64,000 nucleotides of DNA from contig JASGHJ010000002.1 in the NCBI GenBank assembly GCA_047602405.1, positions 2,880,001 to 2,944,000 of the forward strand, in the 5' to 3' direction. Each line of letters begins with the position of its first letter. The stretch's first letter is position 1. Source of the stretch: Anaeromyxobacteraceae bacterium (GTDB taxonomy: Bacteria > Myxococcota > Myxococcia > Myxococcales > Anaeromyxobacteraceae). Under the pieces are notes generated by a model, which was given only the letters and a program-made list of their open reading frames with translations, ran no database searches and was not told the origin of the DNA. A program made the position numbers and the translations under genes. Below are positions 4,419 to 15,516 of this stretch, one piece after another.

Positions 4419-9737
<5,319 letters not shown>

Positions 9738-9778
9738 GGGGGCTTGCTCGTCCCGAGCTTCTCGGCCTGGCCGCGAGT

Positions 9779-10092
9779 CCGTGGGAGCCAAACGGGCCTC
9801 CGCGACAGCGCTTGCTCGGACGGGTTTGAGACGGAAGAGATTGCCGGAACCGTTGCCGTTCCACGGCGGTGATCGCGCAGCAGGCCTGCGGACCATGTGC
9901 GCGTGACGGCGTCGTGCGCTGCGCGCACGGCGCCGTCCTCGCGCGATGGTTCCTTGGCCTGCAATGCGAGATGTGGTGACGGTACCTCGCCCGTCGCTCG
10001 CTGCGCGCTGCTGCGGAGGCCCGTTTGGCTCTCGGGCGTCGTGGACGGCGGTGCGGCCGATACTGCTGGGGTGCTGGTGAACGACTAACGGT
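9779..10092 (+). repeat. copy 1 of a ~300-bp palindromic non-coding repeat
   Basis: Aligns with the reverse complement of 10122-10437; its own ends pair (9783-9803 with 10013-10033). Confidence 0.85.
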
Positions 10093-10121
10093 AGGTCACC
10101 CGCCGTCCGTCACCTCATCGG

Positions 10122-10437
10122 AACCATCAGTTCATCACTCGCCGCCCAGCAGTATCGGCCGACCTCAGTCCGCTACCTCCGAGGGCGAAACGCGTCTCCG
10201 CAGCGGCGCGCAGCGAGCGACGGGCGAGGTTCCGTCTCCACATCGCAGCATTGCAGGCCTAGAGATGTGGGCGGGTGACGGCATGGCGCGCGCAGCGCGC
10301 TGTGCCGTCACCCGCATCTCAATCGACGGCCTGCTGCCGCCGATCACCGCCGTGGAACAGCAACGGTTCCGGTGATCGGTCCCGTCTCAAACCCGTCCGA
10401 GCAAGCGCCGTCGCGGAGGCGCGTTTCGCCCCCACGG
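10122..10437 (-). repeat. copy 2 (inverted) of the ~300-bp palindromic non-coding repeat
   Basis: A 27-nt block at 10382-10408 is the exact reverse complement of 9808-9834; its own ends pair (10181-10201 with 10413-10433). Confidence 0.85.
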
Positions 10438-10538
10438 CAACGCACCGTCGACGACAAGGGGGGAACGAACGGCCAAGCGTGGGACGAACGGTTGGCCCCC
10501 ACGGCAGCGCACCGTCGACGACAGGGGAAACGAGCGGT
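10428..10538 (+). repeat. two-copy direct repeat, period 67 bp
   Basis: GCCCCCACGGCARCGCACCGTCGACGACA-purine run-AACGARCGG at 10428 and 10495. Confidence 0.8.
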
Positions 10539-10540
10539 TC

Positions 10541-11113
10541 TTACTCGACCACCCAGATCATCTCCCACCTGCGGCCCTCGCGGGCCGCAGGCACGGAGAG
10601 GATCACGTCCTGGAGCTGGCGGCGGGCGCAGTCGACCGCGCCGGGGTCCTCGGGGGGCGGCACGGGGACGCCCGCCGGGAACTCCTTCGGATCGTGCGCC
10701 GTGCCCTTCACCTCGACGACGCGCACCCGGCGGTCGAGCGACTCGAAGCCCAGGAGCAGCTCGGCGTGGAGGAGCCGGCACGGGCGCACGCGGTCGGCGT
10801 AGGCGTGGAGCGCCTCCTGGATCTGCGCCGTCCAGGCCTGGAGCGCGGCGGCGCGCTCGCCGAGGTCGGCGGGCAGCGTCTCCTTCGCGGTGCCCTCCCC
10901 GGGCTCCCTCGGCTTCGGGGGCGCCTCCCGCGGCGGCGGCGGGGGGCTGGCGTTCGGCAGCACGATTTGCGGCAGCGGCGCGGGTGCCGCGGCCTCGGGC
11001 GCCGGCGCGGCGCCGGGTCCCTTCACCGGCCCCTCGAGCGACAGCACGAGCCACACTCCGCCCGCGGCGAGGAGCACGATCCCTGCGAGGCCGGCGAGGA
11101 GCCCCTTCCTCAC
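10541..11113 (-). CDS. hypothetical membrane-anchored Pro-rich protein
   Basis: N-terminal TM helix and Pro/Ala linker; GTG start overlaps the ptsG stop (GTGA). Confidence 0.7.
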
Positions 11114-12958
11114 GTCGCCTTGACCGCCTCGGCCAGCCTGTCGGCGTGCTCACCCACGATGAGGTGGAGGATACCAGGTCCGGCCTGCATCACCGCCATG
11201 ACGCCCGCGCCGCGGGCGCCCGGCTCGTCGAACCGGCCGGGGTCCGCGAGCACGACGCGCAGGCGCGTGAGCGCGACGGCATCGAGCGAGCGCAGGTTCT
11301 CGCGGCCGCCGAGGGCGCGAAGGAGCGGCGGAGCCGCCTCGGCGACCCAGGCGTCCGCGCCGGCCGCCGCGGCGGCGAGGCCCGGCCCCGGCGCCGGCAG
11401 GGAAGCCGGAGCGGGCGGAGCGGCCGCTTGCGCCGCCCCGTCCGCCTCGGCCCCCGCAGAGGCCGCAGTCGACGCGAGGTAGAGCTGCATGTCGGTCTTC
11501 AGGTTCTCCGACACCGGCCCGAAGATCGCCTGCACCCCGTTCCCGATGACGACCACGCCGGTGGCGCCGAGCGCCTTGAGGCGCGCCTGGTCCACCCGGG
11601 CCGGGTCGGCCACCGTGATGCGCAGGCGGGTGATGCAGGCGTCGAGGGCCTTCAGGTTCGGGCGGCCGCCGAACGCGAGCACGAGGTCGCGCGCCTTCGA
11701 GGAGCCGGCGGAGGTGGCGGCGTGGGCGGCCTGCGCGACCGGCGCGTCCTCGCGGCCCGGGGTCTTGAGGTCGAGCCAGCGGATCGCCGCGCGGAACGTG
11801 ACGTAGTAGATGCCCGCGTAGATCGGCCCGAACACCAGCACGAGCCACCACTTCTGCGAGAACGGGTTGAGGACGTTGAAGACGACGAAGTCGATCCCGC
11901 CCTGGGAGAAGGTGAAGCCCATGTGCACGCCGAGCGTCGCGAACAGGAACTGGGCGGTCGCGACGAGGAGCGCGTGCACGAGGTAGAGCTGCGGCGCCAC
12001 GAACAGGAACGCGAACTCGATGGGCTCGGTGATGCCGGTGAGGAACGAGGTCAGCGCGGCCGAGATCATCATGCCGCCGACGGCGGTGCGGTGCTCGGGC
12101 TTCGCCGAGTGCCAGATGGCGATCGCGGCGGCGGGCAGGCCCCACATCTTGAAGAGGAAGGCGCCGCCGAGGATGCCGGCGGTCGGGTCCCCGGAGAAGT
12201 AGCGCTGGATGTCGCCCGTGACGGTCTTGCCGGTCACCGGATTGACGAAGCTGCCGATCTCGTAGAAGAACGGCGCGTTCCAGATGTGGTGGAGCCCGAA
12301 GGGCACCAGCATGCGCTCCACGAAGCCGTAGAGCGTCGCCGCGAGGCGCGGGTCGCCGACCGCGGCCCAGTGGGAGAAGACGTTGATGCCGCGCCCGATG
12401 GGCGGCCAGACCACCGCGAGCACGAGGCCGAGCCCGATGGCCGAGAGCGCGGTGATGATGGGCACGAAGCGCTTGCCGGCGAAGAAGGCCAGGTAGGGCG
12501 GCAGCGAGATCCGGTAGAAGCGGTTGAACATCCACGCCGCGAGCGCGCCGGCGAGGATGCCGCCGAACACCCCGGTCTGCATGGACTTGATGCCCATGAT
12601 GGTGGCCGGCGGGATGCCCCACACCCCGGCCAGCACGCCCATGGTCGCGAGCATGACCGTGTAGCCGATCATCGCGGCGATGGCCGAGACGCCGTCGTTC
12701 TCGGTGAACCCGAGCGCGACCGCGATGGCGAAGATGAGCGGCATGTTGCCGAACACCACGTCGCCGCTCATGCGCATCAGGTCGGAGACGACCTGCGGCA
12801 TCCAGTGGAAGTTCGCCGCGCCGATGCCGAGGAGCAGGCCCGCGACCGGCAGCACCGCCACCGGCAGCATGAGGGACTTGCCGATTCTTCTGCAGGAACC
12901 CGAACGCGCCGGTGAGCGCGCCCTCCCCCGCCGGAGCCGCCGCCGCCGTCGTCGTCAT
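11110..12958 (-). CDS. ptsG: PTS glucose-family EIICB with an extra degenerate C-terminal EIIB; +1 frameshift near 12885 (probable sequence error)
   Basis: (FLQKIGKS)[46 protein letters not shown] 12958 overlaps the stop of the upstream PTS gene. Confidence 0.9.
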
Positions 12959-15516
12959 GTGAGCACCTTGGTCGCGGTGGCCGCGCCGGACTCGTCGAAC
13001 TGCACGAGCGCCTGGCGGACCTCCGCCGTGGTCCTGCAGCGCAGCACCTCGGTCGCGAGCTCGGAGCACTCCGAGAGCCGGTGCCGCGAGATGGCGGCCT
13101 TCACCGGCGCGATGGAGGGCACGCTCACCGACAGCTCGTCGAGGCCGAGGCCCACGAGGAGCGGGACGGCCAGCGCCTCGGAGGCGAGCCCGCCGCAGAC
13201 CCCCACCCACTTCCCCTGCTCGTGGGCGCCCTCGACCGTCATCGCCATCATCCGCAGCACGGCCGGGTGGAGCGCGTCGGCCTGGCGGGCGAGCCGGGGG
13301 TGCCCGCGGTCCATCGCGAGCGTGTACTGGGTGAGGTCGTTCGTGCCGATGGAGAAGAAGTCCACCTCGCGCGCGAGCTGCTCGACGATCACCGCGGCCG
13401 AGGGGACCTCGACCATGATGCCGACCTTCACGGCGCGGGGGATGGCCTGCTGCTCCTCGGCGAGGAGCGCCTTCGCCTGGCGCAGCTCCTCGAGCGTCGC
13501 CACCATCGGGAACATGAGGTGCAGGTTCCCGGCCGGCGCCGCGCGCAGGATGGCGCGGAGCTGGACCCGGAAGACGTCCGGATAGGCGAGGCTGACCCGG
13601 ATGCCGCGCAGGCCCAGGAAGGGGTTCTGCTCCCTCGGCAGCGGCATGTACGAGAGCGGCTTGTCGCCGCCCACGTCGAGGGTCCGCACGATGAAGCGGC
13701 GGTCGCGGCCCAGCGCCTCGGCCATCGCGCCGTACTCGGCGGCCTGCTCGTCCTCGCCCGGCGCCACGTCGCGGTCGGCGAAGAGGAGCTCGGTGCGGAG
13801 CAGCCCCACGCCCTCGGCGCCGGAGGCGAGCGCGGCCTTCACGTCCTCGAGCGTCGCCACGTTCGCGGCGACCTCGATGCGGTGGCCGTCCCGCGTGCGC
13901 GCGGGCTGCCCTGCGGCGGCCGCCTCCTGCTCGCGCCGCGCGGCCTGGTCGGCGATGCGCTGCCTCACCGCGATGACGTGCCCCTCGTCCGGGCTCACCT
14001 TCACGAGGCCGATGGCGCCGTCGATGACGACCCTCAGGCCGTTCGGCAGGCTGAGCGCGTGCTCCTCGATGCCGCACACCGCCGGGATGCCCATCGAGCG
14101 GGCGAGGATCGCCACGTGGCTCGTCGAGCCGCCGGTGGTCGTGCAGAAGCCGAGCACGACCTTCGGGTCGAGGGCGGCCACCTCGGAGGGGGTGAGCTCG
14201 TCGGAGATCAGGATTGACCCGGGCGGGATCTCCGCCTGCGCGGTCGCCGCGCCGGTGAGGAGCCCGAGGAGCCGCCCGCCAACGTCGCGGAGGTCCGCCG
14301 CGCGCTCGCGCATCAGCGCGTTCTCGAGCTGCTCGAGCTTCGCCGCCTGGCCGGTGTACGCCTCGCGCCAGGCGAAGGCGGCGCTCTTGCCCTCGGCGAG
14401 GTGCCGCTCGGTGGTCTCGATGAGGTCCGGGTCCTCGAGCAGCGCGAGCTGCACGTCCAGGATCGCGGCCTTGCCGGGGTCGGCGGCGTGGCGCTCGAGC
14501 GCGTCGATCTGCCGGGCCGCCTCGCGGACCGCGGCGGCGTACCGGGCGCGCTCCTCGTCGGGCGTGCCGCCGCGCTCTTCGACCGCGATGGCGGCGTGGC
14601 GGCGCTGGAACACCTTGCCGATGGCGAGCCCCGGCGACGCGGGCGCGCCGACGAGCTCGTTCGAGCCGCTCGGCGCGACCCGCGGGACCGGCGCGCGGCG
14701 CGCCTCGGGGGCGACCGGCGCGTCCGACGCCTTCTCCCCGAGGCCGTGGGCGACCTGGGCGGCGAGGTGGGCGACCGCCGCGGCGGCGTCGGGGCCGGTG
14801 GCCTCGAAGACCACCTGCTCGCCCTGCTGGGCCGAGAGCCCCATGATCGCGACGACCGACTTCGCGTTCACCCGGTCGGCGCCGCGCACGAGGGTGACCG
14901 ACGACTGGTACTTCTTCGCCTCGCCCGCGAGCACCGCGGCGGGCCGGGCGTGGAGGCCGACCCGGTTCGGGATCGCCACCGGGGCAGACCGCACCGTCTC
15001 GCCGGACACGCTGGCCGCGCGCGCCTGGGCGCCGCCGAGCTCCACGGTGAGGAGCACCGAGCGGCCCGCCTCGACGAGGCCCCTGGCGGCCTCGAGGCGG
15101 CTGACGCGCTCGACGTTCGTGACCACGACCTCGGTGAGCAGGCTGCGGGCGGTGCGGGCGATGGCGTCGAGGTCGAGGCGCAGCACCGGCTGGCCGCGCT
15201 CGACGTGGTCGCCGAGGGCGACGAGCGGGGTGAACCCCCGCCCGGCCAGGGTGACCGTGTCGAGGCCGACGTGGACCAGGACCTCGACCCCGGCCGCGCT
15301 CGTGATGGCGAGCGCGTGGTGGGCGGAGTGGAGCTGGGTCACGTCACCGGTGATCGGGGCGAGCACCTCGGCAGAGGTGGGGTCGATCGCCGCCCCGTCG
15401 CCGACCATCTTCCGCGCGAAGACGGGATTGGGCACCGAGTCCAGCGGCACGACCACGCCGGACAGCGGGGCGACGATCTCGATCCTCGTTGGTGATCCCG
15501 ACATGGCCACGCTCAC
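12955..15516 (-). CDS. multiphosphoryl transfer protein EIIA(Glc)-HPr-Enzyme I fusion
   Basis: EIIA EVLVHVGLDTV, HPr GLHARPA and NAKS, EI TSHVAILARS, GLLRTE, RTLDVGGDK, SIGTNDLTQY; true start may be ATG 15504. Confidence 0.95.
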   Translation of the reverse strand: MSVAMSGSPTRIEIVAPLSGVVVPLDSVPNPVFARKMVGDGAAIDPTSAEVLAPITGDVTQLHSAHHALAITSAAGVEVLVHVGLDTVTLAGRGFTPLVALGDHVERGQPVLRLDLDAIARTARSLLTEVVVTNVERVSRLEAARGLVEAGRSVLLTVELGGAQARAASVSGETVRSAPVAIPNRVGLHARPAAVLAGEAKKYQSSVTLVRGADRVNAKSVVAIMGLSAQQGEQVVFEATGPDAAAAVAHLAAQVAHGLGEKASDAPVAPEARRAPVPRVAPSGSNELVGAPASPGLAIGKVFQRRHAAIAVEERGGTPDEERARYAAAVREAARQIDALERHAADPGKAAILDVQLALLEDPDLIETTERHLAEGKSAAFAWREAYTGQAAKLEQLENALMRERAADLRDVGGRLLGLLTGAATAQAEIPPGSILISDELTPSEVAALDPKVVLGFCTTTGGSTSHVAILARSMGIPAVCGIEEHALSLPNGLRVVIDGAIGLVKVSPDEGHVIAVRQRIADQAARREQEAAAAGQPARTRDGHRIEVAANVATLEDVKAALASGAEGVGLLRTELLFADRDVAPGEDEQAAEYGAMAEALGRDRRFIVRTLDVGGDKPLSYMPLPREQNPFLGLRGIRVSLAYPDVFRVQLRAILRAAPAGNLHLMFPMVATLEELRQAKALLAEEQQAIPRAVKVGIMVEVPSAAVIVEQLAREVDFFSIGTNDLTQYTLAMDRGHPRLARQADALHPAVLRMMAMTVEGAHEQGKWVGVCGGLASEALAVPLLVGLGLDELSVSVPSIAPVKAAISRHRLSECSELATEVLRCRTTAEVRQALVQFDESGAATATKVLT

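Follow-up and report, generated by a model that had tools for sequence, protein, structure and literature searches.

REPINs, as described in the portions of PMC3116915 that deal with them, are extragenic inverted doublets that can lose their interior and that serve as targets for insertion sequences (ISs). A second described association, set out in part of PMC11893778, pairs the nuclease Ssn with a short palindrome, the SRM. We analyzed a 64,000-nt window (the whole stretch presented above) from an Anaeromyxobacteraceae genome, G000, in which two facing hairpin units occupy the gap between two converging genes. These units belong to a repeat family, family A, that we interpret as a REPIN/BIME-type non-autonomous mobile element of unusually large size: two unlike, facing units of ~330 nt that would fold as single-stranded DNA (ssDNA) and would have been spread by an enzyme encoded elsewhere. 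We put the probability of this reading at roughly 0.6. In the open literature we found no description of the family A repeat.

The window locus and its genomic copies

A sequence-only reading of the window had described two inverted copies of a rod-like non-coding element of ~250 nt. The copies are real: Positions 9779–10092 match the reverse complement of 10122–10437 in 251 of 318 columns (79%), with exact blocks of 27 nt (9808–9834/10382–10408) and 17 nt (10054–10070/10145–10161) as reported and further exact blocks of 25 and 18 nt that had been overlooked. The closing and apical stems also lie where that reading placed them, and each copy is a strong fold on its own (z −6.6 to −7.8 on both strands; 0 of 100 dinucleotide shuffles as good). 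The proposed size describes the rod (~253 nt), but the conserved unit extends to ~330 nt and consists of an ~18-nt leader, the rod, and, on the side toward the partner unit, a ~60-nt tail (Table 1). Open reading frames crossing the pair are disrupted by indels among the copies. A fold-back assembly artifact is ruled out by the 79% likeness of the copies, by the same pair at the orthologous place in a sister species (G010), and by pieces in contigs of four public runs. The doublet does lie between convergent genes, whose ends flank it at 9737 and 10541. Farther right, at 11110–15516 of the window, a glucose-type PTS EIICB gene adjoins a fused EIIA-HPr-EI gene, as read from the translations.

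Table 1. Features of the hairpin pair and its flanks, in window coordinates
Feature	Position	Strand	Basis
Left flanking gene, 1772 aa, MopE-type and IPT/TIG repeats; stop 27 nt ahead of unit 1	4419..9737	+	
Unit 1 (A-type outer stem): leader, rod hairpin, tail; sense of upstream gene	9764..10096	+	Alignment mapped to window
Unit 1 closing stem, 5' arm; pairs with 10005–10034	9782..9811	+	
Alternative small REP-like hairpin within the unit 1 closing-stem arm	9783..9801	+	
Unit 1 invariant GA facing CT at 10011–10012: two-base in-stem mismatch	9804..9805	+	
Unit 1 inner and apical stems	9880..9962	+	
Unit 1 apex, GCGCAGC DNA mini-hairpin	9918..9924	-	Motif as defined in part of PMC13037366
Unit 1 conserved tail	10035..10096	+	
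Central spacer, variable; ~20–230 nt in other pairs, often short tandem repeats	10097..10118	.	
Unit 2 (B-type outer stem); sense of right-hand gene	10119..10452	-	
CCATCAGTTCA, unoccupied form of the IS1111 target, 2 mismatches from CCGTTAGTTCA	10124..10134	+	
Unit 2 apex, GCGCAGC DNA mini-hairpin	10290..10296	+	
Unit 2 closing stem, 5' arm; pairs with 10180–10209; invariant mismatch 10411–10412/10202–10203	10405..10434	-	
Partial stuttered copy of unit 2 outer end, 85% to 10415–10460	10482..10527	-	
Right flanking gene, 190 aa, no Pfam family; convergent; stop 89 nt from unit 2	10541..11113	-	

A profile built from the two window copies (cut-off E below 1e-30) recovered 31 units at 16 loci of G000: One stands alone, and the rest form 15 inverted pairs, of which one has an internal deletion. 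Pairwise identity among the units is 61–96% (median 77%). All 31 are intergenic; by a crude gene caller, 28 lie 6–345 nt behind a same-sense stop codon, three are without a call, and none of the 31 is placed against an antisense gene. The polarity of A-type units shows no bias with respect to replication direction (6 of 14 origin-proximal). As separate observations, the 29 loci of family A and a second family, B, avoid the origin-proximal chromosome (dnaA at C1:1.06 Mb) in a post hoc combined test (KS P 0.009; family A alone, P 0.11), and the spacer of one pair (C1:2051565–2051625) holds a single-copy fragment that we take to resemble an IS21-family end.

Across 92 genomes of the bacterial family, DNA and covariance-model searches place family A in two, G000 and G010. 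Weak BLAST matches in other members of the genus were rejected as GC-rich coding DNA. A degenerate-pattern search of a genome collection returned two loci titled Anaeromyxobacter sp., which are the same DNA as counted loci, together with one unrelated chance match; the same pattern matched one metagenome contig and nothing in viral contigs, plasmids, or phages, this being a strict pattern that may miss distant relatives. The contigs of the four public runs carry pieces of family A amounting to at most 13% of words; one run is a metatranscriptome, of low depth and from other strains, and its contigs cannot show expression. Inside G000, an inner-tail weight-matrix scan matched the family A ends to nothing else (a scan to which we give no weight, as it found 18 units and no more), and a genome-wide seed scan for other long rods was insensitive, recovering only 14 of 51 known A and B units.

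Comparison with relatives reveals both arrival and loss. At two loci, nine outgroup genomes (four and five) keep the same genes with only short spacers, so the element was gained there. Ten of the 16 loci were compared between G010 and G000: In G010 one pair is whole, two are internally deleted, three or four survive as end remnants (the fourth doubtful), and three have left no trace. At one of the last three, a unit of another type is present in contig L090. The whole pair is the window's own locus, with different stem tiers and four extra outer-end stutters. The element has thus been lost or has collapsed at 9 of the 10 compared loci, between flanking genes that retain about 90% identity. 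All three G010 loci are orthologous to G000 loci, so no insertion postdating the split is seen. Judged from these orthologous sequences, family A copies have undergone decay and conversion since G000 and G010 separated. In one sludge contig an A-type end adjoins the right-hand gene, an arrangement that fits inversion or conversion. For a MITE of a DDE transposon one would expect a target duplication and terminal inverted repeats in common with an autonomous IS; no duplication was seen by eye at family A loci, but the flanks there are old and stuttered. Copy number, empty sites, and remnants all agree with the earlier suggestion that a non-autonomous hairpin element lies as a doublet between two convergent genes.

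Conserved pairing, strand preference, and exchange of stem tiers

The structure alignment comprises 32 units, three from G010 and 29 from G000, whose two deleted units were omitted. Pairing is conserved across all of them: The 58-pair structure is 94.8% paired, compared with 87.5% after shuffling and 30–51% when slid. Changes on both sides are found in 16 of the 58 pairs; this count alone does not exceed the shuffle control (62 of 500), whereas the paired cells and the covariation score do (0 of 500). The units are related by descent, so these counts overstate independent events. When every column pair with two Watson–Crick states was scanned without bias, the predicted helices came out as the top two diagonals, with seven pairs each against at most three for any other. 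Selection on the fold, as first proposed, is likely, but arm-to-arm copying in a DNA palindrome yields compensatory changes too.

The whole pair folds best by unit-to-unit pairing. Between the partners of a pair, the outer and middle stems resemble each other less than between random units (P about 0.001), and 13 of 14 intact pairs contain exactly one A-type unit (P 0.003). Because partners are less alike than random and an A-type unit is joined to a unit of another type, the within-unit rod is what is kept.

Which nucleic acid adopts this rod bears on the alternative that survives best, in which each converging gene transcribes the unit in the same sense as a 3'-untranslated RNA structure (a terminator, a pause site, or a block to exonuclease), selection acts on the RNA fold, and the spread is ancient. 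The position of 28 of 31 units behind a same-sense stop, with none against an antisense gene, speaks for it, as does covariation within the unit, the fold that a transcript would form first. The G–U cells of the closing stem on the transcribed strand point the same way (71 vs. 51 without the invariant mismatch), as do the pieces in one metatranscriptome assembly, within the limit on contigs given above, and the discussion of REP dimers as RNA elements in the part of PMC3733652 devoted to them. Other features argue for DNA. The apex reads GCGC-TNC-GCGC in 27 of 31 units (16 TGC, 10 TTC, and 1 TAC), one of the remainder having GCA and three a four-base loop; such a loop occupies 7.8% of the 4,222 GCGC-NNN-GCGC sites in G000, and the copies being related, the 27 represent three loop states rather than 27 events. 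The opposite strand of the T-N-C units reads GCGNAGC, a DNA mini-hairpin whose RNA counterparts are much less stable according to the section of PMC13037366 that treats it. This mini-hairpin lies on the non-transcribed sense, the UNCG-like reading of the RNA strand has a C–C closing pair, and the consensus fold is better on the GCGNAGC strand (−105 vs. −88). G–T and A–C cells number 103 and 83 (71 and 51 without the invariant mismatch), showing no strong one-strand bias. No promoter-like or terminator-like site, including a U-tract terminator, was found at the units. Loss or collapse at 9 of 10 compared G010 loci, between genes kept at about 90% identity, also weighs against a 3'-untranslated role, which we regard as improbable, though deserving of consideration.

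An Rfam search agreed with the first reading that the element matches no known RNA family: None reached the gathering score over the element, the sub-threshold matches being generic long-hairpin miRNA models, and six loci of IS and other families likewise gave no match at gathering score. The stand-alone structured ncRNA that it had also suggested is not supported, given the lack of a promoter-like site, the similar numbers of G–T and A–C cells, the DNA-type apex, and the loss of copies at most sister-species loci compared. As units follow genes in the same sense, read-through RNA will contain them, and they may have an RNA-level effect in such transcripts. For RNA discovery the locus is a caution, the strong covariation here most likely reflecting a DNA fold.

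The stems also record exchange between copies. The arms of a given tier, be it outer, middle, or inner, co-segregate fully although up to 250 nt apart (normalized MI 1.00; apex 0.71), whereas different tiers are mixed among copies (normalized MI 0.33–0.68). The four-gamete test fails for 2,826 of 5,356 column pairs. When a stem tier is exchanged between copies, both of its arms move together. A distinctly unlikely account would make do with such processes and involve neither a dedicated enzyme nor selection: Recombination and template switching would generate long palindromes and disperse them, and arm-to-arm copying would mimic compensatory change. The end stutters and hairpin collapses do look like replication slippage, template switching lengthens the identity shared by the arms of imperfect repeats in the cases treated in the relevant part of PMC3820800, and no enzyme was found. 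Arm-copying should, however, erase the GA/CT two-base mismatch inside the closing stem, yet all 32 units retain it; conservation extends to the unpaired tail and side regions, and slippage leaves the arrival at 16 unrelated loci unexplained.

In a separate observation, made by eye, stuttered end copies often end at CCTCC(GC), just ahead of the invariant mismatch (outer ends at G000 C2:1350362, 1993567, 3293132, and 3365505, and at G010 C2:642693), which may reflect either cutting preferred at this site or slippage from one short direct repeat to another.

Candidate enzymes, guest elements, and sister families

No mobilizing gene was found for family A. In the searches, which also covered families B and C (below), no A, B, or C unit lay near 25 Y1 loci (6 in G000 and 19 in five family-C genomes) or in 25 GIY-YIG loci from 17 genomes, and none of five further G000 Y1 copies found by tblastn was at any of the 16 loci. 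The integron-integrase model TIGR02249 reached 84 bits at best, against a cut-off of 265. A Y2/IS91 search was uninformative, its control giving no match either. A motif scan for reverse transcriptases found only the group II intron type, none beside a unit.

This last result bears on a retron-like, reverse-transcribed unit, in which the transcript of the upstream gene would be copied to DNA and the copy strand would carry the mini-hairpin. The closing stem, side hairpins, and long apical stem together presumably resemble the outline of a retron RNA, and the mini-hairpin does lie on the strand that a reverse transcriptase would make. With group II intron enzymes alone in the scan, and with inverted pairs and end stutters unexplained, we consider this origin very improbable. 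Two observations stand apart from it. Seven near-identical group II introns in G000 (C1:439134, 557348, and 2073579; C2:769431, 1212227, 1713039, and 1786988) each apparently sit at the start codon of a host gene. At C1:1892794–1893096 (L297, L300), a small GIY-YIG (Ssn-like) gene lies inside an array of short palindromes, of which there are about 200 genome-wide and three in the window (30843, 43482, and 47495); homologs of this gene in other members of the genus are flanked likewise, as in the known Ssn/SRM pairing.

The preferred reading, a mobile ssDNA hairpin pair, can be laid out as a series of steps. The rod would form when the DNA becomes single-stranded in replication or transcription. 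An ssDNA transposase, most likely of the HUH (Y1) type, would then have recognized the mismatched terminal stem and put the pair into gaps between converging genes; the choice of an HUH enzyme is a guess by analogy with REPINs and IS200/IS605 ends, as far as these are treated in the pertinent part of PMC3116915. Copies would recombine with one another, only products with matching arms persisting, and unlike partners would persist because a perfect 330-bp palindrome would be deleted. The central gap, finally, would offer a tolerated landing place for other DNA.

Such DNA is present in four family A pairs, which are 2.2 kb long and each have inside a 1,470-bp element with no other copy in G000. 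The four guests differ at 1–3 of 1,470 bases and encode an IS110-family recombinase (DEDD and Transposase_20: PF01548 and PF02371; NF033542, 228 bits against a cut-off of 140). Their ends have 13-bp sub-terminal repeats with 7 and 3 bases outside and a downstream non-coding region; IS1111 elements are defined, in the portion of PMC11187229 concerned, by 11–13-bp sub-terminal repeats with 7 and 3 bases outside and a long downstream non-coding region. At each of the four junctions, CCGTTAGTTCA is reconstituted at the unit's inner end. This 11-mer is absent elsewhere in G000, unoccupied units differing from it by 1–4 mismatches, so all four perfect sites are filled and no perfect free target is left. 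The right end of the guest has a predicted fold with two loops, one of which holds ATGAACT and then CTGTTAG, complements of the two target strands; the guide order, top-strand complement followed by bottom-strand complement, is that of the IS1111 elements with seek/bridge RNA covered in the same portion of PMC11187229. In IS1111 relatives from G090, G069, G074, G093, and G236, the guide segments change with the elements' own targets, as judged by eye. A non-coding RNA from the right end is predicted to guide the recombinase to the inner end of the unit. Set beside known IS1111 elements, the guest is new, and so is its target, the inner tail of family A; it offers a clear natural instance of a bridge RNA programmed onto a repeat specific to one lineage. 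The guest is a recent parasite or passenger, not the maker of the repeat. In another IS1111 relative (L095, in G100), a hairpin of ~155 nt, which has a short direct repeat, is inserted into the non-coding right end.

The attC core boxes are RYYYAAC and GTTRRRY, which the GCCAAAC/GTTTGGC of A-type stems presumably resembles. A long attC-like site, another of the initial suggestions, is not supported: AAC/GTT is not kept, 6 of 32 units reading TCGAC/GTCTC; no integron integrase exceeds the cut-off; and the units form inverted pairs rather than a same-orientation array. That the units are ends of an IS1111 element, or attC-like cassette sites, has almost nothing to recommend it even though 4 of 15 pairs enclose the IS and attC and REP sites are targets of IS1111 members (as covered in part of PMC11187229), because the IS copies differ at 1–3 of 1,470 bases and the units around them at roughly 20–40%, the IS has its own ends, and its relatives occupy other targets.

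Two sister families show the same build. Family B has 20 units in G000; between the units of one pair lies a 216-aa ORF whose TPR match is weak. Family C occurs in 6 of 92 genomes, from six other species (G006, G009, G011, G016, G019, and G022), three of which (G011, G006, and G016) carry it behind the same host gene as one A pair. C units lie behind stop codons in 24 of 26 cases, and many are solo. IS1111 elements related to the guest sit in C units of G006 and G009. In several C pairs the units flank 380–1,030 nt of DNA with a lower GC content, in which lie an AAA ATPase with DUF4276 and two short ORFs of unknown kind. Like A, both families have a leader, a ~250-nt rod, and a tail, in facing pairs or solos behind stop codons; each has 16–17 Watson–Crick swap pairs, and C has in common with A the GCT-TC-GC apex (15 of 27 C units). 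B and C pairs can enclose genes, whereas A pairs enclose only IS DNA. Searches by nhmmer, shared words, and covariance model found no sequence homology among families A, B, C, and D, and despite the same build, common descent of A, B, and C is not supported by these comparisons.

We offer only as a speculative extension that A, B, and C form an undescribed class of giant paired ssDNA hairpin elements in Anaeromyxobacteraceae, moved by some enzyme and acting as capture platforms between converging genes. They would take up ISs and small foreign genes (the defense-like AAA ATPase and DUF4276 among them) much as integrons do, but with inverted hairpin pairs. If the passengers in B and C were captured via the hairpins, this would be a new gene-uptake route in myxobacteria.

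Two more repeats were noted in passing. In six genomes of another genus (G069, G070, G073, G074, G077, and G078; L202–L225), a further structured repeat lies behind stop codons and is targeted by IS1111 relatives in G069 and G074. At 46 sites in G000 (e.g., C2:261085, 261264, and 261910) there is a ~70-nt double-hairpin repeat with GNA-type loops, three copies of it among tRNA genes, and no transposase beside it.

Comparison with known repeat systems

The published SRM pattern, in the form in which it is available from PMC11893778, matches 0 of 32 A, 0 of 20 B, and 0 of 27 C units. CGTC-REPs and SRMs with Ssn nonetheless share with family A, on the partial accounts of PMC11893778 and PMC3733652, the character of ssDNA hairpins behind gene ends, and such short repeats abut several A outer ends. 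The Ssn-like genes of these genomes are flanked by the short repeats, not by A units.

The closest likeness is to REPINs, REP dimers, and BIMEs, so far as they are characterized in the relevant portions of PMC3116915 and PMC3733652. These, too, are extragenic, multi-copy inverted doublets between convergent genes, with unlike partners, a stem mismatch, interior deletions, tandem end copies, and targeting by ISs. In a further REPIN-like trait, an A unit is bounded by two inverted REP-like palindromes of ~25 nt, and 30 of 31 units stand in inverted pairs. Family A departs from REPINs in scale and content: Its units are ~330 nt, about three times longer, with a conserved structured interior and tail, the paired units span ~690 nt, and there are only 16 loci. 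In place of the GTAG tag, GTGG is found in 21 of 32 outer ends and GAGA/GAGG at the inner ends, and no RAYT gene is flanked by the same repeat. Family A works like a REPIN or BIME while lacking the tag and a cognate RAYT. Most REP-like repeats are too short for the history of their spread and persistence to be read from them. The A units are long and variable enough to show theirs—matched-arm exchange of tiers, non-identical partners, and an invariant mismatch—and so provide defined substrates for finding the enzyme.
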